NCBI RefSeq assembly: GCF_036507355.1
Contig: NZ_AP027877.1
Reading direction: 5' to 3' (one strand)
Length of the DNA: 64,000 bases
Source: Escherichia coli
Lineage (GTDB): Bacteria; Pseudomonadota; Gammaproteobacteria; Enterobacterales; Enterobacteriaceae
Every line of letters starts with the position of its first letter. The first letter of the stretch is position 1. Of the stretch, positions 12,730-45,366 are shown piece by piece. Below the pieces are notes generated by a model that was not told where the DNA came from, searched no databases, and saw only the letters and a list, made by a program, of their open reading frames with translations. The position numbers were made by a program, and so were the translations under genes.

Positions 12730-13710
12730 ATGAAAAAAATACCTTTAGGCACAACGGATATTACGCTTTCGCGAATGGGGTTGGGGACATGGGCCATTGG
12801 CGGCGGTCCTGCATGGAATGGCGATCTCGATCGGCAAATATGTATTGATACGATTCTTGAAGCCCATCGTTGCGGCATTAATCTGATTGATACTGCACCA
12901 GGATATAACTTTGGCAATAGTGAAGTTATCGTCGGTCAGGCGTTAAAAAAACTGCCCCGTGAACAGGTTGTAGTAGAAACCAAATGCGGCATTGTCTGGG
13001 AACGAAAAGGAAGTTTATTCAACAAAGTTGGCGATCGGCAGTTGTATAAAAACCTTTCCCCGGAATCTATCCGCGAAGAGGTAGAAGCCAGCTTGCAACG
13101 TCTGGGTATTGATTACATCGATATCTACATGACGCACTGGCAGTCGGTGCCGCCATTTTTTACGCCGATCGCTGAAACTGTCACAGTGCTTAATGAGTTA
13201 AAGGCTGAAGGGAAAATTCGCGCTATAGGCGCTGCTAACGTCGATGCTGACCATATCCGCGAGTATCTGCAATATGGTGAACTGGATATTATTCAGGCGA
13301 AATACAGTATCCTCGACCGGGCAATGGAAAACGAACTGCTGCCGCTATGTCGTGATAATGGCATTGTGGTTCAGGTTTATTCCCCGCTAGAGCAGGGATT
13401 GTTGACCGGCACCATCACTCGTGATTACGTTCCGGGCGGCGCTCGGGCAAATAAAGTCTGGTTCCAGCGTGAAAACATGCTGAAAGTGATTGATATGCTT
13501 GAACAGTGGCAGCCACTTTGTGCTCGTTATCAGTGCACAATTCCCACTCTGGCACTGGCGTGGATATTAAAACAGAGTGATTTAATCTCCATTCTTAGTG
13601 GGGCTACTGCACCGGAACAGGTACGCGAAAATGTCGCGGCACTGAATATCAACTTATCGGATGCAGACGCAACATTGATGAGGGAAATGGCAGAGGCCCT
13701 GGAGCGTTAA
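12730..13710 (+). CDS. ydjG: Aldo-keto reductase YdjG
   Basis: 326 aa; aldo-keto reductase family sequence recognised. Confidence 0.9.
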   Translation: MKKIPLGTTDITLSRMGLGTWAIGGGPAWNGDLDRQICIDTILEAHRCGINLIDTAPGYNFGNSEVIVGQALKKLPREQVVVETKCGIVWERKGSLFNKVGDRQLYKNLSPESIREEVEASLQRLGIDYIDIYMTHWQSVPPFFTPIAETVTVLNELKAEGKIRAIGAANVDADHIREYLQYGELDIIQAKYSILDRAMENELLPLCRDNGIVVQVYSPLEQGLLTGTITRDYVPGGARANKVWFQRENMLKVIDMLEQWQPLCARYQCTIPTLALAWILKQSDLISILSGATAPEQVRENVAALNINLSDADATLMREMAEALER

Positions 13711-13846
13711 ATACTCAACACGATTCACCTCTGTTTCTGTGAAAACTGTGATGAAAATCTGTGATTCAAACAGGTTATTTTGAAAGTAAACATCGGTTAT
13801 GCGATAATCGCGCTAATGTGATGTAAAAAGATACAGGGGTGTAATC

Positions 13847-14605
13847 GTGGCGGCAAAAGACAGGATTCAGGCAATTAAGCAAATGGTTGCCAACGATAAA
13901 AAGGTGACAGTCTCAAATTTGAGTGGGATTTTTCAGGTAACCGAAGAAACCATTCGCCGCGATCTTGAGAAGCTGGAAGATGAAGGCTTTTTGACCAGAA
14001 CCTATGGTGGTGCTGTTTTAAATACAGCGATGTTGACGGAGAATATCCATTTTTATAAGCGCGCTTCATCGTTTTATGAAGAGAAGCAGCTTATTGCACG
14101 CAAGGCACTACCCTTTATCGACAATAAAACCACCATGGCAGCCGATTCCAGTAGTACCGTAATGGAATTGCTCAAATTGTTACAGGACCGTAGTGACCTG
14201 ACGTTGCTAACCAACTCGGCGGAAGCGATTCATGTTCTGGCTCAGTCAGAAATTAAAGTCGTTTCAACGGGTGGGGAACTAAACAAAAATACACTTTCAC
14301 TGCAAGGAAGAATTACTAAAGAGATCATCAGCCGCTACCATGTCGATATCATGGTAATGAGTTGTAAAGGTCTTGATATTAACAGCGGCGCGCTGGACTC
14401 TAATGAAGCGGAAGCTGAAATCAAAAAGACAATGATCCGTCAGGCGACAGAAGTTGCGTTATTGGTTGATCACTCTAAGTTTGATCGCAAAGCTTTTGTC
14501 CAGTTAGCTGACTTTAGTCATATTAATTACATAATAACTGATAAATCACCGGGTGCAGAGTGGATAGCATTTTGCAAAGACAATAATATCCAGCTGGTGT
14601 GGTAA
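13847..14605 (+). CDS. ydjF: DeoR-family transcriptional regulator YdjF
   Basis: 252 aa; N-terminal helix-turn-helix (VSNLSGIFQVTEETIRRDLEKLE) and DeoR C-terminal sugar-phosphate sensor domain. Confidence 0.9.
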   Translation: MAAKDRIQAIKQMVANDKKVTVSNLSGIFQVTEETIRRDLEKLEDEGFLTRTYGGAVLNTAMLTENIHFYKRASSFYEEKQLIARKALPFIDNKTTMAADSSSTVMELLKLLQDRSDLTLLTNSAEAIHVLAQSEIKVVSTGGELNKNTLSLQGRITKEIISRYHVDIMVMSCKGLDINSGALDSNEAEAEIKKTMIRQATEVALLVDHSKFDRKAFVQLADFSHINYIITDKSPGAEWIAFCKDNNIQLVW

Positions 14606-14722
14606 TTTAAGCACACGTTGTCAATATTATTTGTTCCTGCGCCTGGAAATAAAATGATGATAAAGATGCGGCAAGTGAATTTGCCGCAATTGCTACCTTT
14701 TTTAGCAAATCCGAGGCACCCA

Positions 14723-16081
14723 ATGGAACAATATGATCAAATTGGCGCAAGACTGGACCGCTTGCCTTTGGCCCGGTTTCATTATCGTATATTTGGTATT
14801 ATAAGCTTTAGTCTGTTATTAACAGGGTTTTTGAGTTACTCCGGTAATGTCGTCTTAGCAAAGCTGGTAAGCAATGGATGGTCAAATAATTTCCTCAATG
14901 CCGCCTTTACCTCGGCATTAATGTTTAGTTATTTCATCGGCTCTCTTACCGGTGGGTTCATCGGTGATTACTTTGGGCGGCGCAGGGCGTTTCGCATAAA
15001 TCTTCTCATCGTCGGTATTGCTGCAACAGGGGCCGCTTTTGTCCCTGATATGTACTGGCTCATCTTCTTTCGCTTCCTGATGGGAACAGGAATGGGGACG
15101 CTGATTATGGTTGGCTATGCCTCATTTACGGAGTTTACCCCCGCGACGGTGCGTGGAAAATGGTCCGCGCGGCTCTCATTTGTTGGTAACTGGTCGCCCA
15201 TGCTGTCTGCGGCGATAGGCGTGGTGGTTATCGCTTTTTTTAGTTGGCGGATAATGTTTCTGCTGGGTGGTATTGGCATACTGTTAGCCTGGTTTCTCTC
15301 AGGTAAATACTTTATCGAGTCGCCACGATGGCTGGCAGGGAAAGGGCAAATCGCAGGTGCAGAATGCCAACTTCGTGAAGTAGAGCAGCAAATTGAAAGA
15401 GAGAAGAGTATTCGTTTACCCCCGCTTACTTCGTATCAGAGCAACAGCAAAGTTAAAGTAATCAAGGGTACTTTCTGGCTCCTGTTTAAAGGTGAAATGT
15501 TACGACGTACATTAGTCGCGATTACTGTTTTAATTGCAATGAACATTTCGCTTTATACCATCACCGTATGGATACCGACCATATTTGTTAACTCCGGCAT
15601 TGATGTCGATAAATCAATATTAATGACCGCTGTTATTATGATTGGCGCTCCGGTAGGAATATTTATTGCGGCATTAATTATTGATCATTTTCCTCGTCGG
15701 TTATTTGGCTCCACCTTACTTATTATTATTGCCGTGTTAGGCTATATCTATTCAATTCAGACTACAGAGTGGGCGATTTTAATCTATGGCCTGGTGATGA
15801 TCTTCTTTTTATACATGTATGTTTGCTTCGCGTCGGCGGTTTATATCCCGGAGCTTTGGCCAACGCATTTACGCCTGCGCGGTTCGGGTTTCGTTAATGC
15901 CGTCGGACGGATCGTCGCAGTCTTCACGCCCTATGGCGTTGCGGCATTATTAACACATTATGGGTCGATCACGGTGTTTATGGTGCTTGGTGTCATGTTA
16001 GTGCTCTGTGCGCTGGTTCTCTCTATTTTTGGCATCGAAACGCGGAAGGTGTCGCTGGAAGAGATTTCTGAGGTGAACTAA
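14723..16081 (+). CDS. ydjE: MFS transporter YdjE
   Basis: 452 aa from ATG 14723 (MEQYDQIGARLDRL), paralogous to ydjK; the ORF-track upstream extension has no support. Confidence 0.88.
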   Translation: MEQYDQIGARLDRLPLARFHYRIFGIISFSLLLTGFLSYSGNVVLAKLVSNGWSNNFLNAAFTSALMFSYFIGSLTGGFIGDYFGRRRAFRINLLIVGIAATGAAFVPDMYWLIFFRFLMGTGMGTLIMVGYASFTEFTPATVRGKWSARLSFVGNWSPMLSAAIGVVVIAFFSWRIMFLLGGIGILLAWFLSGKYFIESPRWLAGKGQIAGAECQLREVEQQIEREKSIRLPPLTSYQSNSKVKVIKGTFWLLFKGEMLRRTLVAITVLIAMNISLYTITVWIPTIFVNSGIDVDKSILMTAVIMIGAPVGIFIAALIIDHFPRRLFGSTLLIIIAVLGYIYSIQTTEWAILIYGLVMIFFLYMYVCFASAVYIPELWPTHLRLRGSGFVNAVGRIVAVFTPYGVAALLTHYGSITVFMVLGVMLVLCALVLSIFGIETRKVSLEEISEVN

Positions 16082-20680: not shown

Positions 20681-21724
20681 ATGAGCGAGAACTCGATTCG
20701 TTTGACCCAATACAGCCACGGAGCTGGTTGCGGCTGTAAAATTTCCCCAAAAGTGTTGGAAACCATCCTGCACAGTGAGCAGGCGAAGTTTGTTGATCCG
20801 AATTTGCTTGTGGGTAATGAAACCCGCGACGATGCGGCGGTGTACGATCTGGGCAATGGCACCAGCGTTATCAGTACCACCGACTTCTTTATGCCGATCG
20901 TTGATAACCCTTTCGATTTTGGCCGCATTGCGGCGACTAACGCCATCAGCGATATCTTCGCGATGGGGGGCAAACCGATTATGGCGATTGCGATCCTCGG
21001 CTGGCCGATTAACAAACTTTCCCCAGAAATTGCCCGCGAAGTAACCGAAGGTGGACGCTATGCATGTCGTCAGGCGGGTATTGCGCTGGCTGGCGGTCAC
21101 TCCATCGATGCGCCGGAGCCGATTTTTGGTTTGGCGGTGACGGGGATCGTACCGACCGAGCGGGTGAAGAAAAACAGTACCGCACAAGCCGGATGTAAAC
21201 TGTTCCTGACGAAACCGCTGGGGATCGGCGTTCTTACCACGGCTGAGAAAAAATCACTGCTGAAACCAGAACATCAGGGACTGGCGACGGAAGTGATGTG
21301 CCGGATGAACATCGCAGGCGCGTCCTTTGCCAACATTGAAGGCGTAAAAGCGATGACCGACGTAACGGGCTTTGGCCTGCTGGGCCATTTGAGCGAAATG
21401 TGTCAGGGCGCAGGTGTGCAGGCGCGCGTTGACTATGACGCGATCCCGAAATTGCCGGGGGTTGAAGAGTACATTAAGTTGGGTGCAGTGCCTGGCGGCA
21501 CCGAACGTAACTTTGCCAGCTACGGTCATCTGATGGGTGAAATGCCGCGTGAAGTGCGCGATTTGCTGTGCGATCCGCAAACTTCTGGCGGTTTGCTGCT
21601 GGCGGTCATGCCGGAAGCAGAAAATGAGGTTAAAGCTACAGCCGCCGAGTTTGGCATTGAACTGAGGGCGATTGGCGAACTGGTGCCAGCGCGCGGCGGT
21701 CGTGCCATGGTTGAGATCCGTTAA
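20681..21724 (+). CDS. selD: Selenide, water dikinase (selenophosphate synthetase)
   Basis: 347 aa from ATG 20681 ([23 protein letters not shown], with the catalytic Cys in the glycine-rich loop). Confidence 0.95.
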
Positions 21725-21728
21725 TTCA

Positions 21729-23690
21729 ATGCGGTTGTTTATTGCCGAAAAACCGAGTCTGGCGCGCGCCATTGCTGATGTCCTGCCCAAACCGCACCGT
21801 AAAGGCGATGGCTTTATCGAGTGCGGTAATGGTCAGGTGGTGACCTGGTGTATCGGTCACCTGCTTGAGCAGGCGCAGCCAGACGCCTACGACAGCCGCT
21901 ATGCGCGCTGGAATCTTGCGGATTTGCCGATTGTCCCGGAAAAGTGGCAATTACAGCCCCGACCCTCCGTGACCAAACAACTTAACGTCATCAAACGGTA
22001 CCTGCATGAAGCCAGCGAAATCGTTCACGCCGGGGACCCGGATCGCGAAGGGCAACTGCTGGTGGATGAAGTGCTGGACTATCTACAACTGGCACCGGAA
22101 AAGCGCCAGCAGGTGCAGCGTTGCTTGATAAACGACCTGAACCCGCAGGCGGTTGAGCGGGCGATCGACCGTCTTCGTTCCAACAGTGAGTTTGTACCGC
22201 TGTGCGTTTCTGCGCTGGCGCGAGCGCGTGCCGACTGGCTGTACGGCATCAATATGACCCGTGCGTATACCATTCTCGGTCGCAATGCCGGTTATCAGGG
22301 CGTGCTTTCCGTGGGACGCGTGCAGACGCCCGTGCTTGGGCTGGTGGTGCGCCGCGATGAAGAGATTGAAAACTTCGTGGCGAAAGACTTCTTTGAAGTC
22401 AAAGCACATATCGTGACACCTGCCGATGAGCGGTTTACCGCTATCTGGCAACCGAGCGAAGCGTGTGAACCGTACCAGGATGAAGAAGGGCGCTTGTTAC
22501 ATCGTCCACTGGCGGAGCATGTGGTTAACCGCATTAGTGGTCAACCGGCTATTGTCACCAGCTATAACGATAAACGGGAATCAGAATCCGCGCCGCTGCC
22601 GTTTTCGCTTTCGGCGTTGCAGATTGAAGCGGCAAAACGCTTTGGTCTGAGCGCGCAGAACGTGCTTGATATCTGCCAGAAGCTGTACGAAACGCACAAG
22701 CTAATCACTTATCCGCGTTCCGATTGTCGCTATTTGCCAGAAGAACATTTTGCCGGACGCCACGCGGTGATGAATGCCATCAGCGTTCATGCACCAGATC
22801 TGTTGCCGCAGCCAGTGGTAGATCCAGATATACGCAACCGCTGTTGGGATGACAAAAAGGTCGATGCGCACCACGCCATCATTCCGACCGCACGGAGTTC
22901 TGCGATCAACCTGACGGAGAACGAAGCGAAGGTCTATAACCTGATTGCTCGTCAGTACTTGATGCAGTTCTGCCCGGATGCGGTGTTCCGCAAGTGTGTT
23001 ATCGAACTGGACATTGCCAAAGGCAAATTTGTCGCTAAAGCGCGTTTTCTTGCTGAAGCAGGTTGGCGCGCGCTGTTAGGCAGCAAAGAGCGCGATGAAG
23101 AAAACGACGGCACGCCATTGCCTGTGGTGGCGAAAGGCGATGAGTTGCTGTGTGAAAAAGGTGAAGTGGTAGAGCGGCAAACCCAGCCGCCGCGCCATTT
23201 TACCGATGCAACACTGCTTTCGGCGATGACCGGGATCGCGCGCTTTGTGCAGGACAAAGATCTGAAAAAGATCCTTCGTGCGACCGATGGTCTGGGGACA
23301 GAAGCAACGCGTGCCGGGATTATTGAACTGTTGTTCAAGCGTGGTTTCCTCACCAAAAAAGGGCGCTATATCCACTCCACCGACGCCGGAAAAGCGTTAT
23401 TCCATTCGCTGCCAGAAATGGCTACGCGACCGGACATGACCGCGCACTGGGAATCGGTGCTGACGCAAATCAGCGAAAAGCAGTGTCGCTATCAGGACTT
23501 TATGCAGCCGCTGGTGGGGACGCTATATCAGCTTATTGATCAAGCCAAACGTACTCCGGTGCGGCAGTTTCGCGGCATTGTGGCTCCGGGCAGTGGTGGC
23601 AGTGCTGATAAGAAAAAGGCTGCACCGCGTAAACGTAGTGCGAAAAAAAGTCCGCCAGCAGATGAAGCCGGAAGCGGGGCGATAGCGTAA
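21729..23690 (+). CDS. topB: DNA topoisomerase III
   Basis: 653 aa from ATG 21729 ([19 protein letters not shown]), 4 bp after the selD stop; type IA topoisomerase TOPRIM domain. Confidence 0.95.
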
Positions 23691-26826: not shown

Positions 26827-27199
26827 ACGCCTCTAATAATGGAATGTCAGCAGGGGCCAGCGGATATTGCAGCGCCTCTTCAGGTGAGCACCAGACCAGC
26901 GCCTGATGTTCATGTGCCTGTAACGTCCCGTGGAAGTCGGGTACGTGCCAGGCATGAAGATGGATAATCCGCCCCGAAACTTCTCGCTGATGGCTGGCTA
27001 CATACTCACCCACAGTTGCTTCGATGCCCAATTCTTCGTTTAACTCACGCACCAGCGCCTGCTGCTGGCTTTCATCCAGCTCGACTTTACCACCGGCAAA
27101 CTCCCATAATCCCGCCTGATCGCTCTGGGCGGGGCGTTGCGCGAGTAAAATTTTGCCATCACGTTCAATGATGGCGGCAACAACTTCAATCATTTTCAT
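26792..27199 (-). CDS. nudG: Nudix hydrolase NudG (CTP/5-methyl-dCTP pyrophosphohydrolase)
   Basis: 135 aa; Nudix box GGKVELDESQQQALVRELNEELGI; its 3' end overlaps the ynjH 3' end. Confidence 0.92.
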   Translation of the reverse strand: MKMIEVVAAIIERDGKILLAQRPAQSDQAGLWEFAGGKVELDESQQQALVRELNEELGIEATVGEYVASHQREVSGRIIHLHAWHVPDFHGTLQAHEHQALVWCSPEEALQYPLAPADIPLLEAFMALRAARPAD

Positions 27200-27285
27200 A
27201 AATTACACACGGGCAGATAAGCGAAAAATGCCATAATATCCGCACTGTTGCTCAATCAGAAAGGCTTTATATTTAAGGAGTGCCT

Positions 27286-27906
27286 GTGCTAGACCGCCAT
27301 CTTCATCCCCGGATTAAACCGTTGTTGCATCAGTGCGTGCGGGTTCTTGATAAACCGGGCATTACGCCAGATGGTTTAACATTAGTGGGATTTGCCATCG
27401 GCGTGCTGGCTCTGCCGTTTCTGGCGCTGGGCTGGTATCTGGCGGCGCTAGTCGTCATTTTGTTGAACAGGCTGCTTGATGGTCTGGACGGTGCGCTGGC
27501 GCGGCGCAGAGGGCTTACTGACGCGGGCGGCTTTCTTGATATTTCTCTCGATTTTCTTTTTTACGCGCTGGTGCCTTTTGGGTTTATCCTCGCCGCACCG
27601 CAGCAAAACGCCCTGGCAGGCGGCTGGCTGCTGTTTGCGTTTATCGGCACGGGTAGCAGTTTTCTAGCTTTTGCTGCGCTGGCGGCGAAACATCAGATTG
27701 ATAATCCCGGTTATGCGCATAAATCGTTTTATTATCTGGGGGGATTAACCGAAGGCACAGAAACGATCTTACTGTTTGTGCTGGGATGTTTATTCCCTGC
27801 ATGGTTTGCGTGGTTTGCGTGGATCTTCGGTGCGTTGTGCTGGATGACGACCTTTACGCGGGTGTGGAGTGGGTATCTGACGCTGAAGTCGCTCCAGCGT
27901 CAGTAA
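27286..27906 (+). CDS. ynjF: CDP-alcohol phosphatidyltransferase-family membrane protein YnjF
   Basis: Motif DGLDGALAR of CDP-alcohol phosphotransferases; start set to the second GTG (27286), well spaced from the AAGGAG Shine-Dalgarno; 27280 is possible. Confidence 0.82.
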   Translation: MLDRHLHPRIKPLLHQCVRVLDKPGITPDGLTLVGFAIGVLALPFLALGWYLAALVVILLNRLLDGLDGALARRRGLTDAGGFLDISLDFLFYALVPFGFILAAPQQNALAGGWLLFAFIGTGSSFLAFAALAAKHQIDNPGYAHKSFYYLGGLTEGTETILLFVLGCLFPAWFAWFAWIFGALCWMTTFTRVWSGYLTLKSLQRQ

Positions 27907-27914
27907 TTGCAATG

Positions 27915-29222
27915 TTATTTGCTGCTGTCCGGGCCGCGTTCACCGGTTGCTACCGGATTTTTTGGATCGCTGCTCCATTCGTACCAGCCGCCGTCGTAAA
28001 CGGAGACGTTATTCCAGCCCATTGCTCGTGCGTACATAAAGGTTTCGGACGCGCGCCAGCCGGTGCCGCAGTAGAATGAAACTTGCTGATCTGGTTTGAT
28101 ATTCCATGCTTTCCACATAGCGGTAATATCATCGGCGCTACGCATGGTGCCATCCGGGTTATGGAAATCTTCCATATGCGTCGAGTCGCTACCAGCGTGT
28201 CCCCAACGTGCTCCGGCTATTTCACCTTTTGGTTTAATATAGCTGTAACCGCTGGTCGTACCGATAAATTCTGGCCACGAACGAATGCTCACCAGCGATG
28301 CATCCTGGCGATGCAGCAGTCCACGGGCCTGTTCCATATCGAGCATCAGTTGCGGTTGTGCCGGGATCTTCACGCCGAAATCCGGTTCCGCTTTCACTTT
28401 CGGTGGCGTTCCTCGCTCAACAGGCAGTCTCGCGTCGGACCAGGTTTGCCAGCCGCCATCCAGCAGGCGCACATCTTTCACGCCTGCATACAGCATAATC
28501 TGCGCCACACGCGCTGCAGCGTATACGTCACGCCCGTACAGAATGACCGTGGTGTCATGGCGAATGCCGTGTTTTGCCAGCATCGCTTTTAGTTGTTCAT
28601 CAGAAACTTTGTTCCACAGCGGTTCGCTTTCCACTTCGTTGGTATCGATGTAGTCAGCACCGGGAATATGGCTGATAAGGTAAAGCTTAGGAGCGCCCCA
28701 GGCCGCTTCAATGACTTTCCAGTCTCCGGCAGGTTTCGCCGTAACCTCTTTACCTTGTTGCAGGTCGTGCAGCCATTGCGGATAAACCAGCTGCTCAAAG
28801 TGCGGCAGTTTTTGTAGACGGGAAGGTTCGCTTAGCGCGTCACTCAGAATGGAGATATGCGTAAAACCTGCTTTTTGCAGTCGCGTTTTGACGGCGTCGA
28901 CATCTTTGCCATTACCGTATAGCGCCACCGGGGCATCGGCTTTCAGGTTATGTTGCTTGATCCACGCGTTTAGCTGTTCGGTGCTCATTTTGTCAAGCCA
29001 GCTAGCAGAGAGGTTTAAGGCGGCAGGTTCATGACCAGAAGGGCCATTTAAGGTTTGTGGCCAGCCGTTATAAAACGCGCTGGGGCGAGTATCTATCGCT
29101 TTGCCATTTTGTTGTTGAAGCTGGTCAAGTGTAAGAGGCTTCGCCAGTTCAGCGGCCCACGAAGAAGCGCAAGCCAGCCCTAAAGCCATTGCGAGCGCGG
29201 TCATTTGAGAAACACGTTTCAT
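27915..29222 (-). CDS. ynjE: Periplasmic thiosulfate sulfurtransferase (three-domain rhodanese) YnjE
   Basis: 435 aa from ATG 29222 (MKRVSQMTALAMALGLACASSWA signal peptide); rhodanese active-site CGTGWR near the C-terminus. Confidence 0.9.
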   Translation of the reverse strand: MKRVSQMTALAMALGLACASSWAAELAKPLTLDQLQQQNGKAIDTRPSAFYNGWPQTLNGPSGHEPAALNLSASWLDKMSTEQLNAWIKQHNLKADAPVALYGNGKDVDAVKTRLQKAGFTHISILSDALSEPSRLQKLPHFEQLVYPQWLHDLQQGKEVTAKPAGDWKVIEAAWGAPKLYLISHIPGADYIDTNEVESEPLWNKVSDEQLKAMLAKHGIRHDTTVILYGRDVYAAARVAQIMLYAGVKDVRLLDGGWQTWSDARLPVERGTPPKVKAEPDFGVKIPAQPQLMLDMEQARGLLHRQDASLVSIRSWPEFIGTTSGYSYIKPKGEIAGARWGHAGSDSTHMEDFHNPDGTMRSADDITAMWKAWNIKPDQQVSFYCGTGWRASETFMYARAMGWNNVSVYDGGWYEWSSDPKNPVATGERGPDSSK

Positions 29223-29288
29223 CGAAAATCCCGACATTGTAGTTTTGAGTGCGCCATTCTGAACTGACGCATTGGGAAAAACTTTGCG

Positions 29289-29942
29289 TTATCGCAGTTT
29301 GTTGTAATTTTCTGACCACTGAGCCATATCCAGAACAGAACTATCAGCAGGAACATCCTGGAGATCGTGCGTTACCTGAACGACGGGGATCGCCAGTTCG
29401 CGAACTTCGCTGAACACCCACTGGCGAAAATTATCGCGCAGAGCCACATCAAGACGGCTGAATGGCTCATCCAGTAGCAACGCTTTTGGCTGAGCGAGAA
29501 GGGCGCGAAGCAGAGCAACGCGCGCTCGCTGACCGCCAGACAAAGTGGCAGGATCCTGATGGAAAGCTCCGTCAAGGCCTGAACGCTCAAGTGCATCATT
29601 CACGGCATTACGTCGGGCATTCCCCTTAAGTGTCGCCGGTAGCGCCAGCAGTAAATTTTGCCCGACACTGAACTGGTCAAATAACAGTGCATCCTGGAAA
29701 AGAATGCCAATATGACGCTGTGCGGTGGGTAGCATGTCAATCCGTTGCTCATTGAGCCATAGCTCACCTGTACAAGAAAACTGTCCAGCCAGTGCACCAA
29801 TCATCCATGAAAACAGAGTGGATTTTCCACAGCCAGACGGACCCATTAACGTGACAATGTCACCTTTATCCACCGTAAAGTTAACGTTTGTCAGCAAGCG
29901 GCTTTCTGGTAAACGTAGCGAAACATTTTTCACGCAGAGCAT
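29289..29942 (-). CDS. ynjD: ABC transporter ATP-binding protein YnjD
   Basis: Walker A GPSGCGKST, ABC signature LSGGQ, Walker B LLLDEPFS; start ATG 29942 shares one base with the ynjC stop (TAATG). Confidence 0.9.
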   Translation of the reverse strand: MLCVKNVSLRLPESRLLTNVNFTVDKGDIVTLMGPSGCGKSTLFSWMIGALAGQFSCTGELWLNEQRIDMLPTAQRHIGILFQDALLFDQFSVGQNLLLALPATLKGNARRNAVNDALERSGLDGAFHQDPATLSGGQRARVALLRALLAQPKALLLDEPFSRLDVALRDNFRQWVFSEVRELAIPVVQVTHDLQDVPADSSVLDMAQWSENYNKLR

Positions 29943-31477
29943 TAGCGGAGTCCTTGTCTGACATAACCTACCCATTTTGCGACTAACGCGGTCAGGGCAA
30001 AAATAGTAAGCGGTAATAGCAGTTGCCATAAAGCCTGGGCGGCGAGAATACCGTTGCTGCCGCCGCTGCTTAATGCCACCGCCTCAGTGGTGAGCGTCGG
30101 AAAACGCCCCGCGCCCAGCCACAGCGTCGGCATATACTGCGCAATACTGACTGAAAATCCCACCGCGAAGGCAATCAGCGTAGGGCGTAGCATAAGCGGA
30201 CATTTCACGTAAAAGAAGATTTTGGCCCGCGACCAGCCCAGTGTTTGTGCAATCAAAATTAACCGTGAATCAATGCGCTGCCAGGCGGGTTGCAGGATAA
30301 ACAGCATCCACGGCATTACCCACAGCAGATGCCCCCAGACCACCGCCGTCCAGCTTCCATCCATGTTCAGCCATAGCGCCAGCGTGTACTGGCCCGCCAC
30401 CAGCTGCAGTGCCGGTAATAAAATGGGCAACCATAGCCACAACTGGCGACGCTGTGGCCCCCATTCCAGCCACAGCAGTAACAGGAGCCAAGCGATGAAT
30501 GTCGCCACCAGCCCCATTGTCAGGCTGTTGATGAGCGCTTCACTATTGATCGTCGACTGATCCGCGAGGATCGCCAGCAGAACCACACACAGCACACCGG
30601 TCAAGGGTAAAAAACTCGCCAGCGTAATGCCTGGCAATAAAGGCGTGGCAGGCTTACGAACGCCATCTACGCGGGGAATAGTACGCCGCCAGGTACACCA
30701 TAGCAGATAGCCCAGCAAAACGTAGGCGGCGAGTAACAACATCAGCAGCAGGCTGGCGAGTGCGCCTTTCGTTTGTTGATCGGCGTCGCCCTGAGTTAAC
30801 CACTGCCAGCTAATTACTGCCAGCGTCGGTGGATTACCTGGCCCAAGAATAATCGCCACATCCACGACCGACAGCGACCAGGCAACAATCGCCAGCATCG
30901 CCATTGCCAGCGCAGGCGCGACGGAGGGCAACAGCAGCCAGTTCAGGCATTGCCAGCGGCTGTAGCCCAGCGAATCCAGCACGATGACTTGCTGTAAAAG
31001 CCGTTTTTCACTCAATACCGCTGCTAAGATCCACAGCAGAAATGCGCTTTCTTTCACCGCCAGCATGAAGCCCAGCCCAATACCCAATTTGTCCATTGGC
31101 GGAGTGAAATACGGGAAATAGTCATAAAGCAGCCCTCCGTCAGCAAAGAGCAGAAGGGCGCTGGTGGCAAAAGCCACATGGGGAATGGCGAGCAGCCACG
31201 GCAGACGGGTGCACATACGCTGCCATTTCGGCCCAGGCCACAGCGCCACAATCACCAGCAGGGCAATCAACAACGCCCCGACCGCCGCGATGGTTGTCGA
31301 CACCAGCGTTGCCAGTAATGCCTGCGGTAACTGTGGATCGGCAAATAACGCCTGCCAGTGTGTCAACGACAAAGCAGGCGATATCAGCGTGAGAGCTGCC
31401 GGGATCAGCGGTGCATAAATCACCGCCACCATCGCCCACAGCAAAAAGATTAATGCGTACCGTAACGGTGTAGCCAT
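29942..31477 (-). CDS. ynjC: ABC transporter permease YnjC (fused double permease domain)
   Basis: About 511 aa polytopic membrane protein; start at 31477 or 31501, either overlapping the ynjB 3' end. Confidence 0.85.
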   Translation of the reverse strand: MATPLRYALIFLLWAMVAVIYAPLIPAALTLISPALSLTHWQALFADPQLPQALLATLVSTTIAAVGALLIALLVIVALWPGPKWQRMCTRLPWLLAIPHVAFATSALLLFADGGLLYDYFPYFTPPMDKLGIGLGFMLAVKESAFLLWILAAVLSEKRLLQQVIVLDSLGYSRWQCLNWLLLPSVAPALAMAMLAIVAWSLSVVDVAIILGPGNPPTLAVISWQWLTQGDADQQTKGALASLLLMLLLAAYVLLGYLLWCTWRRTIPRVDGVRKPATPLLPGITLASFLPLTGVLCVVLLAILADQSTINSEALINSLTMGLVATFIAWLLLLLWLEWGPQRRQLWLWLPILLPALQLVAGQYTLALWLNMDGSWTAVVWGHLLWVMPWMLFILQPAWQRIDSRLILIAQTLGWSRAKIFFYVKCPLMLRPTLIAFAVGFSVSIAQYMPTLWLGAGRFPTLTTEAVALSSGGSNGILAAQALWQLLLPLTIFALTALVAKWVGYVRQGLR

Positions 31478-32619
31478 TCTTGTTCCAGCGCATTTACCCA
31501 ACCTGCGTGCGGTTCAGCCAGTACCGGCGGCAGATCTTGCGGCATTCTTGATTGCAATGTTTCGCGCTGCCCATCAGGCAGTTTTTGCGGATCGAGAACA
31601 GAAGGATCGCCCCAGACAGCGGGATCTGCTTTACGCAATTGCGCATCGGGTGAGAGCAAGAAATTGGCAACTACCTTCGCCGCAGCACTGGCATTCGCGT
31701 TGGCAGGAATGGTGACGAAATGCACATTGCCAATCATCCCCTCGCGAAAGCCAAAACTGTAACTGCTTGCAGGCAAATCGCCGCTGGCGATTTTTTGCTG
31801 CGCATGCGCGGGGTTAAAGGTCAGCGACAGGCGCAATGTGCCGGCTTTCAGCAGAGCATCCATCCGCGCGGGCGAAGGCGGGAAATCCTTTCCTTCGCGC
31901 CACAAATACGGATGCAGCGCATCAAGATATTGCCACAAGGGAGCAGTGACACGGGCGAAAGTTGCATCGTCCGGCGCTTCTTTTAATGCGGCGGGATCGG
32001 GCGTCAGCATAATCAGCAACTGTTCAAGAAACGCCGTGCCGGTAAAGTCCGGTGGGCGCGGATAGGTAACCGTGCCGGGATTGGCTTTAGCAAACTCCAG
32101 TAAGGCTTGCGGCGTTTGTGGTGGCTGTGGCGTAACATCGCGGCGGGCGATAAATGTCAGTTGTGCGCCCCCCCAGGGCGATTCAGCCCCTTCTGTAGGC
32201 ACTGAAAAATCTTCCCGCACCGGCAGCTGTGTGTCGACATAGCGCCAGTTGGGCAGAGTCTCTGCCCAGTCGGTTTGCAGTAAATTGGCCTCTTTTAAGG
32301 TGTGGAAGTTTTCGCCGTTCACCCAGAGCAGATCCACCGAGCCGCCCGTTTTACGTCCGGCTGCGGCTTCGGTCTGAATGCGCTTCACCGCGTCTGCGGC
32401 ATCCGCCAGACGAACAATCTTCAGGTTTATAGCGTAATGGGTTTTCATCTCGCCGCTCACCCAGTCGAGATAGCGGTTAATTGCGGTATCGCCGCCCCAG
32501 GCGTTAAACCAGACGGTTTGCCCTTTGGCCTCATTTTTAATTTCTTGCCAGTCACTGGCATGTGTTGCCAGAGAAAACAGCGATAACAATCCCAGCAACC
32601 ACCCACAATGGCGCATCAT
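31450..32619 (-). CDS. ynjB: ABC transporter periplasmic substrate-binding protein YnjB
   Basis: 389 aa with signal peptide MMRHCGWLLGLLSLFSLATHA; thiamine/iron-type solute-binding protein family recognised. Confidence 0.88.
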   Translation of the reverse strand: MMRHCGWLLGLLSLFSLATHASDWQEIKNEAKGQTVWFNAWGGDTAINRYLDWVSGEMKTHYAINLKIVRLADAADAVKRIQTEAAAGRKTGGSVDLLWVNGENFHTLKEANLLQTDWAETLPNWRYVDTQLPVREDFSVPTEGAESPWGGAQLTFIARRDVTPQPPQTPQALLEFAKANPGTVTYPRPPDFTGTAFLEQLLIMLTPDPAALKEAPDDATFARVTAPLWQYLDALHPYLWREGKDFPPSPARMDALLKAGTLRLSLTFNPAHAQQKIASGDLPASSYSFGFREGMIGNVHFVTIPANANASAAAKVVANFLLSPDAQLRKADPAVWGDPSVLDPQKLPDGQRETLQSRMPQDLPPVLAEPHAGWVNALEQEWLHRYGTH

Positions 32620-32625
32620 CTCTCC

Positions 32626-33174
32626 TTAAGAACGTTTTTCCGGAATACGGCACAGCCCCTGAGCGGGAATGTCCATGGCAGAATTAAAACGGGCTGACAG
32701 ATTTTGCAGGCCGATCAATGCCGTCAGTTCGGTGAGCGCCTGAGCGTCAAAATGCGCAGCCAGTCGGGTGCGCAGGGCATCATCGACCGTTGGCGGTGTG
32801 ACGCTTGCGGCTTCGGCGTACTCCAGCGCCAGCCGTTCTTCATCGCTGAAGAGCGGGCTTTGCCGCCAGTCAGCCACTGCCAGCAGTTTATCGCTGCTGC
32901 CGGTACGCTCGGCGACTTTCATACTGGTGATATCCACACAAAACTCACACAGGCACATTTGCGCAATGCGCGCGCTGACAAGCGATCGTACTACCGGATC
33001 GAGCGGTGAGCGTTTGCGCTCCAGCCAGCCAACAAACATCGACACCAGATAAAAGATAAACGGGATCCGCCCCCACCAGCGAATGGGGCTTAGCACCTCG
33101 CCGTAATGGCGACGATGCAGCCACGCCTGCGGACGTAAAATGAAAGGAATTTTGCTAAGCGGTGGTAAACCCAT
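32626..33174 (-). CDS. ynjA: AhpD-like (carboxymuconolactone decarboxylase family) protein YnjA
   Basis: 182 aa; CxxC-containing AhpD-like core; start shares one base with the ydjZ stop (TGATG). Confidence 0.85.
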   Translation of the reverse strand: MGLPPLSKIPFILRPQAWLHRRHYGEVLSPIRWWGRIPFIFYLVSMFVGWLERKRSPLDPVVRSLVSARIAQMCLCEFCVDITSMKVAERTGSSDKLLAVADWRQSPLFSDEERLALEYAEAASVTPPTVDDALRTRLAAHFDAQALTELTALIGLQNLSARFNSAMDIPAQGLCRIPEKRS

Positions 33175-33881
33175 CAGGCATTCCTCTTCTGGCGCTCAAG
33201 CCATATTTTCTTCGCCATAAAAATCACCACGGTCAGGGCAAACAGAATAAACAGTCCGGTGACAAACCAAAAGGTACCGCCTGTTAACATGCTGCCCGCC
33301 CAGGAATAAACAATAGTCGCCGGTAACTGACCAAGCCCGGTGGCGATAAAAAACGAGCGAAAACGGATTGAAGTCAGACCGGCAGCATAGCTGATTGGAT
33401 CGAAAGGGACAAAAGGCAATAACCGACAGACCAGGATGGTGTGTTTGCCGTAGCGAGTGAAAAAGCCGTCCATACTGTCAAGTACTGTTTTGCCGGTTAA
33501 TTTTTCCACCACTTCGCGGCCCATCACTCTGGCGATAAAAAAGCACAGCGCCGCGCCGGCCATCGAACTGGTCCACGACAGCAAGCCGCCCCAGAGCGCG
33601 CCAAACAGCGACGCATTGGCAAAGGTGATCAAAAACGCAGGTAGCGGTGCAGCAATGGCCTGTAAAATCATCAACAAGAACGAGACAACTGCCGCCAGTG
33701 CGCCGTAAGACTGAATAAAGCGTTCTATACCCTGTTGGTCCACGGCGGCAAACGCCGCAACGCTGCGATTGATAAACTCATGGACGCCGGGAAGTAGCGC
33801 CCATGCCAGCAGCATAGCGAACAACAGGATGATGAGGGTTATACGGTAGTACCAGATTTTTCGCGATTGCATCTTCATCAT
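33174..33881 (-). CDS. ydjZ: DedA/TVP38-family inner-membrane protein YdjZ
   Basis: 235 aa polytopic membrane protein of the DedA/SNARE-associated family. Confidence 0.88.
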   Translation of the reverse strand: MMKMQSRKIWYYRITLIILLFAMLLAWALLPGVHEFINRSVAAFAAVDQQGIERFIQSYGALAAVVSFLLMILQAIAAPLPAFLITFANASLFGALWGGLLSWTSSMAGAALCFFIARVMGREVVEKLTGKTVLDSMDGFFTRYGKHTILVCRLLPFVPFDPISYAAGLTSIRFRSFFIATGLGQLPATIVYSWAGSMLTGGTFWFVTGLFILFALTVVIFMAKKIWLERQKRNA

Positions 33882-33895
33882 CCTTTATCCTGGCT

Positions 33896-34573
33896 TTATT
33901 CGGTGATTTTAAAGGTAACCGTTGCCAGCGTGTTATCCGCCGGGAGAACCGAGGCATTGCCTTTGAATTTAACTTCACCTCGTTTTTCAACCGCACCATA
34001 AGTGTATGTTGCATTGCTGACGATGCCGACCGGGCAGCTATCCAGACACACCAGGCAGCCCGTTTTCTTCTCTTCTGCTGCCGTTAAATTACCGCCAAAG
34101 CGCATGTCCAGTTTCTTGCCATTACTGTCAACAATCACTTCATCGAAGGAATACGCTTTTGCCGCCCCTTGCCAGTTGACCGAAATATCCAGTTTGCTGC
34201 CTGTGACATGAGTCGTTTCTTTATTATCCATCGTCATGTTTTCGCCCGGTGTACCACCTGCCTCTTTCAGGGCTTCATAAAATGCTTTCGGGGTCGCATA
34301 ACCCATAAACAGCGATTTATGTCCGTTGGAGCCATCTTTAAACACAATACCGTGACGAGTGTCGTCGGTGAGGAAACGACCATTAATTTGCACCAGCATG
34401 GTTACCGTATGGTTATTGGCATCGACGCGCAGCGGTTGGCTGTTCGAAAGTCCGTCGTATTCCACTTTTGCCGCCGCATTCTCTTTTTGATCGCAGCCGC
34501 TAAGCCCAGCAACAGCCAGTAAGCAGAGTGCAGTCAGTCCTTTTTTCCATGACACTGAATAATGTTGCAACAT
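33896..34573 (-). CDS. ydjY: Lipoprotein YdjY
   Basis: 225 aa from ATG 34573 with AAGGA Shine-Dalgarno; lipobox LSGC after the signal peptide; the ORF-track upstream extension is rejected because it overlaps ydjX. Confidence 0.85.
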   Translation of the reverse strand: MLQHYSVSWKKGLTALCLLAVAGLSGCDQKENAAAKVEYDGLSNSQPLRVDANNHTVTMLVQINGRFLTDDTRHGIVFKDGSNGHKSLFMGYATPKAFYEALKEAGGTPGENMTMDNKETTHVTGSKLDISVNWQGAAKAYSFDEVIVDSNGKKLDMRFGGNLTAAEEKKTGCLVCLDSCPVGIVSNATYTYGAVEKRGEVKFKGNASVLPADNTLATVTFKITE

Positions 34574-34577
34574 CGTT

Positions 34578-35288
34578 CTATCCTTCATTTTTTGGGTGAG
34601 TAAGTGGGTTGCGGCGCGAAGCAGACAGATCCACATGTTTGTGTCGGGCGTAGAGTTTTGCGAGCTGGACGAGAATAAACAGCGCCAGGCCCGCCAGACA
34701 GAGTTGTAAAATAAAGCGCAGCGTAATGCCTTCATTGGCGAGATCGCTTGCCATCACGGTATAAATAACAATACCGGGCAGGGTCGTGAGTGCCGAAATA
34801 AGGGTATAAGGCCAGAAGGCGATTGTGGTTAATCCGTAAGCGTAATTTTGAATATTGTAAGGAAACAACGGGATTAAGCGGGTCAGAATAAGAAAATCAA
34901 TACCGTTACGCGCAATGCCTTTTTCAATGGCCTGAAAGGTATGGCTATGGCCAACGTATTTCAGCAGTAAATCACGTCCCAGCCAGCGCGCCAGCAGGAA
35001 TGAGCACGAGGAGGCCAGCGTTGCGGCAATTAATGAGAGTAGTGTCCCTAAGAGCAGGCCAAAAACTATTCCTCCCGCGATCACCAGTATGCTTCCTGGT
35101 AACAGAAAGAGGGTGGCAATGATGAATAACAGAATATAGAGGCTATAACCGAACAATCCGCTCTGGCGGATGAGTGTCTGTAAGTGGGGTAAATCGGTGA
35201 GCAGATCGAATAAACCGAAAGCGTGGATAGCGTAAATGACCAGCGCAAAAATAAGACAGGCAAACAGAAATTTACGCTCAGCGTTCAT
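34578..35288 (-). CDS. ydjX: DedA/TVP38-family inner-membrane protein YdjX
   Basis: 236 aa from ATG 35288 (MNAERKFLFACLIFALVIYA); paralogue of ydjZ. Confidence 0.88.
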   Translation of the reverse strand: MNAERKFLFACLIFALVIYAIHAFGLFDLLTDLPHLQTLIRQSGLFGYSLYILLFIIATLFLLPGSILVIAGGIVFGLLLGTLLSLIAATLASSCSFLLARWLGRDLLLKYVGHSHTFQAIEKGIARNGIDFLILTRLIPLFPYNIQNYAYGLTTIAFWPYTLISALTTLPGIVIYTVMASDLANEGITLRFILQLCLAGLALFILVQLAKLYARHKHVDLSASRRNPLTHPKNEG

Positions 35289-35454
35289 CGTGGAGTTTCC
35301 TATATCAAACTTGATAATAGAGAAGTGGTCAGACAACTAAAAACGCAGTGACGGTATAACAAAGGACGGCAGGCAACAAATCATTACTGACAGTTTGTTG
35401 ATTTTTCTCAAGGTTAATTCTCCTGGCCCAGTTTGAGCCAGGAGAGCTGCTAAA

Positions 35455-36261
35455 TTAGCGGCGGAAGGTCGCCCAGACGGGGGCGTGATCGGACGGTTTT
35501 TCCATGCTGCGAATTTCATAGTCGATGCCGGTTTCTACGCAACATTCTGCCAGCGGTTGGCTGGCGAGCAGCAGGTCGATGCGCAGACCGCGGTTATCGT
35601 CAAAACCTTTTGAGCGGTAATCAAACCATGAGAAACGATCTGCTGTTTGCGGATTCGCATGGCGGAAGGTATCGACCAATCCCCAGCTCATCAGTCTCTC
35701 CATCCATTCGCGTTCCTCCGGAAGGAAAGAACATTTTCCGGTACGCAGCCAGCGCTTACGGTTCTCTTCGCCAATGCCAATATCCAGGTCGCCAGGACTG
35801 ATATTCATATCGCCCATAATCAGCACCGGATTTTCACGCTTGAGTTCGGTTTCCAAATAATTTTGCAGGTTCTGATAAAACTGCGCCTTCGCCGGGAATT
35901 TTATCGGATGGTCGCGGCTTTCACCCTGCGGAAAGTAACCGTTGATCACGGTGACATTGCCCAGCGGCGAGGGGATTTCCGCCATAATAATCCGCCGTTG
36001 CGCCTCTTCGTCGTCACCGGGAAAGCCGCGACGCACGGCAATCGGCGTCTCTTTGGTCAGCAGTGCCACGCCATAATGGCCTTTCTGCCCGTGATAAAAC
36101 ACGTTGTAGCCGAGCTTCGCCACCTCTTCGAGCGGAAACATATCGTCATGAACTTTTGTCTCCTGCAGGCCAATCACATCCGGTTGGTGCTTTTCGACGA
36201 TGGCTTCAAGCTGGTGGGGCCTGGCGCGCAGGCCGTTGATATTAAAAGAGACAAATTTCAT
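35455..36261 (-). CDS. xthA: Exodeoxyribonuclease III
   Basis: 268 aa from ATG 36261 ([36 protein letters not shown]). Confidence 0.96.
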
Positions 36262-36618
36262 AGTCGCTGCCATTTATTCAGATAAAGAGTGCGTGGATGG
36301 TAGCAGAATTTCGCTTTGCTTACCGCCTGTTGTTAAGTGATTTGATCGATGGTTGTTAATGATGTCAACGATGGCGCAAAAAATGCCCGCTTTTGGTGCG
36401 AGCTGCGTCAGAATGGCGCAGTAATTTCCAGTAAATTTCGTCAATGATCACAATTCCAGAATTATATTTTACTTCTGCATAACATTGCGTTTTTTATTCT
36501 TTTTATTCACCCACATCGCAAACGTATTCACTTAATATGCACTTTAAATGCATATGGTTTGGTTATAACTCCTTGATTTCCAGTTAGCCTCCGCGGTTTA
36601 TGCACTTTTATCACTGGC

Positions 36619-45269: not shown

Positions 45270-45366
45270 GCTACGCTTGTCAGGCCTATTCGACTCCTGC
45301 AATGTATTGAATTTGCATAGTTTTGTAGGTCGAATAAGGCGTTCACGCCGCATCCGGCGTGAACAA
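45270..45366. repeat. REP/BIME element between cho and nadE
   Basis: GTAGGTCGAATAAGGCGTTCACGCCGCATCCGGC is a canonical REP unit, with a second partial unit upstream. Confidence 0.85.

Follow-up and report, generated by a model that had tools for sequence, protein, structure and literature searches.

What do the seven genes ydjX, ydjY, ydjZ, ynjA, ynjB, ynjC and ynjD of Escherichia coli do together, and which compound do they handle? They form the operon ydjXYZ-ynjABCD on the minus strand of the 64,000-nucleotide stretch analysed here (contig NZ_AP027877.1; the whole stretch is called the window). The gene of an exported rhodanese, ynjE, follows on the same strand. The operon is already annotated in E. 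coli and its regulation is published; it is therefore not new as a discovery. An earlier note on this DNA had called its substrate unassigned. This was confirmed in the literature searched, where no paper was found that assigns a substrate or a mechanism to ydjXYZ-ynjABCD.

We tentatively favour a thiol relay across the inner membrane, with selenium as its cargo or, less likely, sulfur. This reading is based on gene neighbourhoods, fusion proteins, conserved residues and published co-expression. Beyond what was published, the analysis adds the YdjY-DedA core, the rhodanese fusions, the YdjZ cysteines, the loci with selenium genes and the recurrent YnjF/YnjBCD neighbours. Genes were located as the longest open reading frames (ORFs) of the minus strand, using our own translation and the RefSeq annotation of a matching O157:H7 record (99.8% identical over the 6-kb stretch).

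YdjY and its partners across phyla

We collected 80 genomic loci around YdjY homologues. The E. coli proteins were mapped to these loci, the neighbouring ORFs were clustered and the recurrent clusters were annotated. Neighbours were counted in the 74 non-enteric loci, which belong to Bacillota, Desulfobacterota, Campylobacterota and Spirochaetia. A DedA gene lay beside YdjY in 66 of the 74 loci (56 separate, 10 fused to a Fer4+CCG domain), and a small membrane protein with an invariant WLEMR motif was present in 61 (27 separate, 34 fused to a YdjZ-like N-terminus). Rhodaneses adjoined YdjY in 16 loci. YnjB-like binding proteins, accompanied by split permeases and an ATPase, were found in 10 loci and YnjF-like CDP-alcohol phosphatidyltransferases in 5, with a sixth case (L087; L numbers denote single loci) from a separate look-up. 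The AhpD-like protein YnjA was found in none.

The widely conserved unit is YdjY with TVP38-type DedA proteins and not the ATP-binding cassette (ABC) importer. The earlier note had placed the importer at the centre. This view did not survive the counts: DedA proteins are far ahead of YnjB-like proteins. The AhpD-like YnjA is an Enterobacterales protein whose place is taken elsewhere by a Fer4+CCG protein.

The WLEMR family comprises proteins of about 130 amino acids (e.g. L042:2881-3270 and L044:10567-10998) with no match in Pfam or NCBIfam. About 34 YdjZ-like proteins of Bacillota have this domain as their N-terminus. A 'WLER' resemblance in YnjA and in the C-terminus of YdjZ was superficial and was not supported by the WLEMR profile.

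The lipoprotein YdjY (33896-34573, minus strand; 225 amino acids) matched the YdjY domain family (NF040466 / PF27149) with 146 bits at a cut-off of 50, including the GCxxCxDSC motif. The residues C173, C176, C180, D178 and S179 are invariant among 18 sequences, and R73 and H74 are invariant as well. The family is rare (391 representatives among 1.84 billion cluster representatives). The identity of the E. coli protein to those from Bacillota, Desulfobacterota and Campylobacterota is 50–60%. According to the established sorting rule of E. coli, aspartate at position +2 of a lipoprotein leads to retention in the inner membrane. The lipobox of YdjY is LSGC, with aspartate at +2 (...LAVAGLSGC-D-QK), and C-D-Q also occurs in four enteric-like homologues. 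YdjY is accordingly predicted to be a lipoprotein retained in the inner membrane.

An older name describes YdjY as a 4Fe-4S ferredoxin. This label was rejected: there are three cysteines in the pattern CxxCxxxC, not CxxCxxCxxxCP, the lipoprotein (Sec) signal has no twin-arginine motif, and no Fer4 match was found in Pfam. Solved chains of the ferredoxin type matched YdjY at an expectation value (E) of 0.29 or worse.

Fusion proteins connect YdjY to two of its neighbours. Three proteins have a rhodanese followed by YdjY (P0149, P0158 and P0229), and one has YdjY followed by a rhodanese (P0152). All four carry signal peptides or lipoboxes, and their rhodanese parts have a catalytic cysteine. In P0190, the C-terminal part of a DedA protein is joined to YdjY. 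An apparent YdjX-YdjY fusion (P0122) is E. coli sequence reading through the 4-base gap between the two genes and was not counted as natural.

The gene ynjE (27915-29222, minus strand; 435 amino acids) encodes an exported three-domain rhodanese. It comprises three rhodanese stretches (Pfam Rhodanese, 117.7 bits, E 3.6e-34) and a signal peptide, and C385, within YCGTGWRA, is the single cysteine of the mature protein. YnjE is periplasmic, has poor activity on thiosulfate and 3-mercaptopyruvate and makes a minor contribution to cellular sulfane sulfur (PMC10215317). Given this poor activity, the true substrate of YnjE may be something else. A functional tie between the operon and the rhodanese, as put forward in the earlier note, was upheld by the fusions in both domain orders, by the 16 loci in which a rhodanese adjoins YdjY and by the activation of both transcription units by FNR (PMC3688515).

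Both DedA proteins, YdjX (34578-35288, minus strand; 236 amino acids) and YdjZ (33174-33881, minus strand; 235 amino acids), have several hydrophobic segments and matched the VTT/DedA domain (PF09335, cut-off 33.9) with 92.2 bits (E 4.5e-26) and 87.2 bits (E 1.6e-24), respectively. They fall in the TMEM41/TVP38 branch of the DedA superfamily (bioRxiv 10.1101/2020.12.18.423352). YdjZ is 50–60% identical to the DedA partners of YdjY across phyla. Two cysteines of its VTT domain are widely kept: C113 in 53 and C152, within a C-R-L-x-P motif, in 50 of 57 YdjZ-type homologues. Among 27 homologues of the YdjX type, no cysteine was conserved. Identity with the undecaprenyl-phosphate transporter UptA (NF052604) was rejected for both proteins (YdjX 27.6 bits, YdjZ 37.4 bits, equivalog cut-off 250).

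By its sequence, YnjA (32626-33174, minus strand; 182 amino acids) is a CMD/AhpD-like CxxC family member with a predicted redox role. It matched CMD (PF02627) with 36.5 bits (cut-off 23) and solved structures of the PA0269 type with E 3e-9. Its cysteines are arranged as C74-x-C76-x-x-C79, and C76-E-F-C79 aligns with CAYC of the PA0269-type structures 2ijc and 2o4d. No hydrophobic segment was found in the YnjA sequence. Homologues are confined to Enterobacterales plus a few metagenomic matches. Outside the enterics, a Fer4+CCG (heterodisulfide-reductase-like) protein holds the position of YnjA, just upstream of YnjF and YnjB (L043, L050, L062 and L087). In Desulfobacterota (L014 and L044), Fer4+CCG is fused to a DedA domain. 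We infer that YnjA is a functional substitute for the Fer4+CCG protein.

The gene ynjF (27286-27906, plus strand) is convergent with ynjE and encodes a membrane protein of the CDP-alcohol phosphatidyltransferase family (Pfam CDP-OH_P_transf, E 9e-11). Its homologues stand beside YnjBCD-like importers and YdjY in L021, L032, L043, L050, L062 and L087, and in Edwardsiella, the ynjF homologue overlaps the end of the ynjA homologue. Both ynjE and ynjF recur with the operon across phyla. We propose that ynjF belongs to the same system as ydjXYZ-ynjABCD.

Selenium genes, expression and the locus in the window

The neighbours of YdjY point to selenium more than to anything else. The gene of selenide, water dikinase (selD; TIGR00476, E 2e-105) lay within a few kb of YdjY in five loci (L019, L079, L080, L073 and L075). 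In L019, the two genes share a strand, and selD begins 63 bases past YdjY. At least five selD cases in 74 loci would occur by chance with a probability of about 2e-4 (a crude binomial figure, weakened by the kinship of the loci). YedF (TIGR03527, 202 bits, cut-off 110) was found near YdjY in L020, L044, L076, L079, L080 and the duplicate pair L087/L088, with a weaker YedF-like match in L073 and L075; the full YedF count was 10 loci, both members of the duplicate pair included. DUF3343 ('Se_S_carrier') occurred in L079 and L087/L088. L073 and L075 contained SelB and a probable SelA; in Facklamia, they come directly after the module, together with selD. In total, SelD, YedF, DUF3343 or SelB occurred within 10 kb of YdjY in about 10 of ~78 non-enteric loci.

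The closest parallel to E. coli is L087, where the E. coli gene set is complete and YedF and DUF3343 are added. One strand carries DedA, a rhodanese-YdjY fusion, a small membrane protein, DedA, YedF and DUF3343, and the other strand carries CCG, YnjF-like and YnjB-like proteins, two permeases and an ATPase.

In the ORF clustering of the YdjY loci, genes of cysteine synthesis, Sox and Dsr did not recur. The earlier suggestion of a sulfur-containing or redox-sensitive compound is right as to its direction, thiol or chalcogen chemistry. As to the element, the evidence leans towards selenium: selenium markers and not sulfur-assimilation genes recur as neighbours.

The selenoproteins of E. coli are the formate dehydrogenases, which are made mainly under anaerobic conditions. 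ChIP (chromatin immunoprecipitation) and RNA sequencing revealed direct activation of ydjXYZ-ynjABCD, as a single operon, by FNR; the site is placed at -60.5 (PMC3688515). An independent component analysis of E. coli transcriptomes placed ydjXYZ-ynjABCD, ynjE, yedEF and yjiLM in one uncharacterised module (PMC7888660). This module is more active anaerobically, and the authors tentatively propose a role in molybdenum and selenium usage. The SelD and YedF neighbours agree with this co-expression of yedEF, with FNR control and with the anaerobic formate dehydrogenases. No other paper was found that links ydj/ynj genes to selenium, and a comparative-genomics study of selenium genes from 2015 mentions neither DedA nor YdjY. 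According to a review from 2022, prokaryotes are still without an identified high-affinity transport system for selenium (PMC9312934).

A pattern scan of the window located a putative FNR box, TTGAGAAAAATCAA, at 35398-35411 on the minus strand. It has one mismatch to TTGAT-N4-ATCAA, is centred 116 bases upstream of the ydjX ATG and is the sole match with at most one mismatch to the FNR consensus in 27000-36500. This candidate box agrees with the published direct activation by FNR. An Rfam scan of the operon leader found no riboswitch or other Rfam RNA. Terminator-like hairpins inside the operon were numerous, as weak pattern matches.

The gene ynjE is a separate FNR-activated unit with its own FNR-dependent promoter (PMC3688515) and is therefore co-regulated with the seven-gene transcript without being part of it. 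Upstream of ynjE, no FNR box with at most two mismatches was found; the scan took in the place to which the published K-12 coordinate extrapolates. The gap between ynjD and ynjE contains a sigma-70 promoter-like site (TTCAGA-16-TACAAT; 29236-29263, minus strand), a pattern match from a consensus scan. The ynjD stop is overlapped by a short inverted repeat at 29284-29297, which reads TGCG..CGCA and then AGTTTTT on the minus strand. This repeat could be a weak terminator ahead of the promoter-like site.

The gene identities and positions given in the earlier note agreed with ORFs, RefSeq annotation and family searches. The tight coupling of the seven genes was evident from the junctions, which were read from the sequence. 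The gaps are 4 bases (ydjX/ydjY), 14 bases (ydjY/ydjZ) and 9 bases (ynjA/ynjB). One base is shared between the ydjZ stop and the ynjA start (TGATG) and between the ynjC stop and the ynjD start (TAATG), as the note had described. The start of ynjC overlaps the 3' end of ynjB by 28 bases; at this junction, the claimed range of 4–14 bp gaps or overlaps did not apply. As also claimed, ynjE starts 66 bases downstream of ynjD on the same strand. The window is chromosomal E. coli DNA. The 6-kb block was matched in 5424 of 5426 complete E. coli genomes, and in 5312 genomes, the match covered at least 80% of the query. It is a conserved block and not a chance arrangement.

The note had left out the convergent ynjF, which co-occurs across phyla, and selD. 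In the window, selD lies at 20681-21724 on the plus strand, upstream of topB and outside the operon (RefSeq annotation). Between selD-topB (20681-23690, plus strand) and ynjF lie nudG, ynjH, gdhA and ynjI, with 5.6 kb from selD to ynjF. The translation of selD is 42% identical to the Facklamia SelD that adjoins YdjY. The proximity of selD and the ydj/ynj genes in the window matches the adjacency of SelD and YdjY in Desulfobacterota and Facklamia.

Two other features of the window were recorded. The sole Rfam match above the gathering score is the small RNA family ES036 (CssrF) at 45282-45324 (minus strand, 42.9 bits), which has no connection with the operon. In the closest annotated record, NZ_CP033605.1, a partial pseudogene of ydjE adjoins an IS3-family transposase (2358522-2361048); by coordinate transfer only, this corresponds to about 12750-15280 of the window.

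Outside E. coli, HGD-D and BcrAD_BadFG genes were observed at L089:14096-15852, 5 kb from a rhodanese-YdjY fusion gene. The same Pfam families have been suggested for E. coli YjiM and YjiL (PMC9068703). In E. coli, yjiLM is co-expressed with the operon (PMC7888660); the parallel may be coincidence.

The proposed relay and its alternatives

Conserved cysteines were found at four places: the exported rhodanese, the membrane-anchored periplasmic YdjY, the membrane protein YdjZ and the cytoplasmic redox protein. This arrangement is as expected for a thiol relay of a thiophilic element. In such a relay, the cysteines would capture a thiol-reactive chalcogen in the periplasm and deliver it to the cytoplasm. 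Selenium for SelD would be the likeliest cargo and sulfane sulfur the main alternative. The exported YnjE would carry the element on C385 as a perselenide or persulfide and would pass it to the three invariant cysteines of YdjY, anchored in the inner membrane. Transport across the membrane would then be the task of the DedA pair of YdjZ and YdjX, along a path that includes the YdjZ residues C113 and C152. In the cytoplasm, the CxxC protein YnjA would release or reduce it. Elsewhere, the Fer4+CCG disulfide-reductase-like protein, sometimes fused to DedA, would take over the job of YnjA. Ogasawara et al. reportedly found in 2001 that a rhodanese perselenide can donate selenium to SelD in vitro, and in 2005, Ledgham et al. 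are said to have implicated a DedA protein in selenite uptake by Cupriavidus metallidurans.

A bolder version, which is possible and more doubtful, has YdjXYZ with YnjE, YnjA and YnjF serve E. coli and many anaerobes as their dedicated route for acquiring trace selenium, by a new kind of transport. The rhodanese and the tri-cysteine lipoprotein would load a DedA relay, and the CxxC/CCG reductase would unload it for SelD. A thiol-bearing carrier lipid, made by YnjF and flipped by DedA, might take part. In other anaerobes, the route would feed ArsS-type radical-SAM pathways towards a selenium- or arsenic-containing sugar or lipid. If true, this would explain where the anaerobic formate dehydrogenases of E. 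coli obtain their selenium and why close homologues of YdjY and YdjZ are spread across gut and oral anaerobes. It would also give a role to two of the eight E. coli DedA proteins and to an exported rhodanese. With the present evidence, a vague co-expression hint becomes a long-standing question, that of trace-selenium acquisition by bacteria, which is testable with named genes, residues, partners and a named element.

Several observations weigh against the selenium relay. To our knowledge, the functions assigned to DedA proteins are lipid or polyprenyl-phosphate transport, not the carriage of an element. No WLEMR-motif protein was found in the six frames of the window, nor by profile in YnjA, YdjX or YdjZ. 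Most YdjY loci have no selenium gene within 10 kb; among these, most loci of Gemella, Finegoldia and Peptostreptococcus have YdjY and a fused DedA only, without informative neighbours. In Klebsiella pneumoniae (L092), ydjX, ydjZ, ynjABCD, ynjE and ynjF are kept and ydjY is absent. Edwardsiella hoshinae (L093) is reduced to a YnjE-like rhodanese, a single DedA gene and a pair of ynjA and ynjF whose ends overlap. YdjY is therefore dispensable in some versions of the system. The reduced set of Edwardsiella also means that YnjA and YnjF may be a more central pair than the relay model allows, which is the main support for a lipid reading (see below). The relay leaves YnjF and the ABC importer unexplained. 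Finally, a part of YnjE in molybdopterin synthesis has been reported, as cited by PMC3688515 and PMC3930520.

ArsS-type radical-SAM proteins (TIGR04167, 451 bits) are a further such point, as they occur in same-strand operons with YdjY and DedA. The 12-gene operon of Campylobacter concisus (L064:245-10143) and the operon of Facklamia lactis (L075:1026-11610) each hold YdjY, a WLEMR protein, two DedA proteins, ArsS, a rhodanese and transferases of TIGR04282 (kinase-fused) and TIGR04283. The former adds Fer4+CCG and C_GCAxxG_C_C, and the latter adds a nucleoside hydrolase and DsbD_TM/ResA-like proteins. Overall, ArsS was found in 10 and TIGR04283 in 15 of the 74 loci. NCBI names these families after 'arsenosugar biosynthesis', so arsenic or another small molecule or lipid is a live alternative. 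An ArsS selenoprotein, which would account for the selenium-gene neighbours, was considered and rejected for these loci: the ends of all ten ArsS homologues have cysteine motifs, and their stop codons are ordinary.

The best-placed alternative, which we consider unlikely, replaces selenium by sulfur: in the anaerobic envelope, the proteins would handle thiosulfate or sulfane sulfur and might, for instance, feed persulfide towards molybdopterin or Fe-S assembly, with YnjE as sulfurtransferase. It is close to the view of the earlier note. The rhodanese is annotated as a thiosulfate sulfurtransferase and is cited in PMC3688515 as molybdopterin synthase sulfurtransferase. A genetic-interaction screen grouped ynjABCDEFI with the Suf components sufCDS (PMC3930520). 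YedF and DUF3343 are TusA/DsrE-like 'Se/S' carrier families and could serve sulfur equally well, and YnjC and YnjD weakly resemble CysT and CysA. However, YnjE works poorly on thiosulfate and 3-mercaptopyruvate and adds little sulfane sulfur (PMC10215317), and it is exported while molybdopterin synthesis is cytoplasmic. The SelD, SelB and probable SelA neighbours are selenium-specific, and the cysteine-synthesis, Sox and Dsr genes do not recur.

In a lipid pathway, YnjBCD would import a solute, and YnjF would turn it into an unusual phospholipid or lipid-linked head group. The DedA proteins would act as scramblases or carrier-lipid transporters and flip the product, on which YdjY and YnjE would act in the periplasm; the thiol chemistry would be of secondary importance. 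According to a preprint (bioRxiv 10.1101/2022.02.03.479048), DedA relatives transport polyprenyl phosphate, and YdjX and YdjZ belong to the TMEM41/TVP38 branch. YnjF-like genes accompany the module in the six non-enteric loci, and the Edwardsiella copy is translationally coupled to ynjA. Other neighbours include LPG_synthase_TM flippase-like proteins, a GT2 glycosyltransferase, a CofC-like nucleotidyltransferase-kinase fusion and a nucleoside hydrolase. Such a pathway offers no explanation of the SelD/YedF neighbours, of the fusions with rhodaneses or of the invariant cysteines in YdjY and YdjZ. Moreover, YdjX and YdjZ score far under the UptA cut-off, and E. coli has none of the sugar-activation genes. 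We rate it as improbable.

Little credence is given to the view that there is no single function, with an ordinary nutrient importer (phosphonate, thiamin-like, polyamine or iron-chelate) co-transcribed by chance with DedA genes of membrane homeostasis. The neighbourhoods across phyla would then be due to mobile gene islands.

Whatever its role, YnjBCD is predicted to be a binding-protein-dependent ABC importer (type I), with all three parts in one operon. YnjB (31450-32616, minus strand; 388 amino acids) matched NF008633 with 561.9 bits (cut-off 203) and is an SBP_bac_8 binding protein with a signal peptide. The permease YnjC (29942-31477, minus strand; 511 amino acids) consists of two fused halves, which are separate genes in Firmicutes and carry PF00528 there. 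BPD_transp_1 matched in the second half only and below the cut-off (19.5 bits, cut-off 26.4); residues 20-215 gave a CysT-like match, and there are ~12 hydrophobic segments overall. The ATPase YnjD (29289-29942, minus strand; 217 amino acids) matched ABC_tran with 103.6 bits (E 1.7e-29, cut-off 25) and has no C-terminal regulatory domain.

The likenesses of this importer are broad. A sequence search gave no solved relative of YnjB. Its structural model (predicted local distance difference test 85) resembles cluster-D binding proteins for phosphonate, iron, polyamine, sugar phosphate and thiamin (PhnS, FbpA, PotD, AfuA and TbpA), with template-modelling (TM) scores of about 0.6 at 12–19% identity. 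A ligand was not assignable from the fold, as the top matches span many specificities, and the thiamine-like or sulfonate ligand suggested before found no specific support. The best NCBIfam matches of YnjD were PhnT2, sulfate, ThiQ, PotA and ModC, all far below their cut-offs. Two known importers were rejected as candidates. For ThiBPQ, YnjD reached 133.6 bits against thiQ (cut-off 245), with no YnjB sequence match to TbpA; the YnjB model compared with 2qry at TM 0.58 and 14% identity. For the sulfate/thiosulfate importer CysPTWA, YnjC reached 21–22 bits against CysT (cut-offs 246–415) and YnjD 111.8 bits against CysA (cut-off 502).

An ordinary importer would agree with these resemblances (for YnjC and YnjD, best to PhnU2, PhnT2 and ThiQ) and with most YdjY loci being without an importer. 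Overexpression of BaeR weakly induces ynjABCD (ynjA), independently of ydjXYZ (PMC2731931). On the other side, stop/start overlaps join ydjZ to ynjA and the rest of the operon, and the equivalog cut-offs of known importers were all missed by wide margins. The same combination of DedA, YdjY, rhodanese, YnjF and YnjBCD recurs in unrelated Bacillota (L043, L050, L062 and L087). YnjBCD with YnjF is a recurrent accessory sub-module. Within the selenium relay, YnjBCD may bring in a related solute, and YnjF may produce a lipid that the DedA proteins require.

Sites of three cysteines typically bind As(III). A module that supplies or exports arsenicals, with As(III)/Sb(III) bound by the YdjY cysteines, would fit the ArsS operons of L064 and L075. 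It is very unlikely, as E. coli has no ArsS, ArsM or TIGR transferases near the operon or in the window, no ArsM, ArsR, ArsB or Acr3 family recurred in the ORF clustering of the loci, the 'arsenosugar' names of TIGR04282 and TIGR04283 are presumably based on gene context and not on experiment, and FNR control and yedEF co-expression fit selenium better.

Comparison with known systems

YeeE mediates thiosulfate uptake. In YeeE/YeeD (TsuA/TsuB) and in YedE/YedF, a small thiol carrier cooperates with a membrane protein that has conserved cysteines, as proposed here. YedE and YedF have been predicted by comparative genomics to serve selenium metabolism (PMC5322559; summarised in PMC9312934). Furthermore, yedEF is co-expressed with the operon in E. 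coli (PMC7888660), and YedF homologues adjoin YdjY in other phyla. Unlike the YedE/YeeE systems, to which there is no sequence relationship, ydj/ynj has a DedA/VTT membrane component and adds an exported rhodanese and a lipoprotein of unsolved fold.

As a type I importer, YnjBCD has the three-part architecture of PhnSTUV, ThiBPQ, FbpABC, PotABCD and CysPTWA/ModABC, to which it shows its best sequence or fold likeness. It differs from all of them by missing every equivalog cut-off, by ~60 extra residues in YnjB and by a permease fused into one two-domain protein.

YnjA shares the CMD fold signature and the aligned CxxC with AhpD, PA0269-type CMD proteins and YciW. Its best NCBIfam match is the YciW-related (seleno)protein family, yet with 101 bits at a cut-off of 310. 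Unlike these proteins, YnjA has an extra cysteine (CxCxxC) and an N-terminal extension of 55 residues, and unlike AhpD systems, there is no gene of a peroxidase partner (AhpC) near ynjA.

YdjX and YdjZ have the same VTT/DedA domain as UptA and the eukaryotic TMEM41B/VMP1/Tvp38. The YdjZ type differs from these by its two near-invariant cysteines and by its pairing with YdjY.

The logic proposed for ydj/ynj is like that of MerP-MerT-MerA, in which a periplasmic cysteine protein hands over to the cysteines of a small inner-membrane protein and these to a cytoplasmic CxxC redox protein. The likeness does not go beyond analogy: homology was not detected, the element is a different one, and the transfer steps of ydj/ynj are hypothetical.

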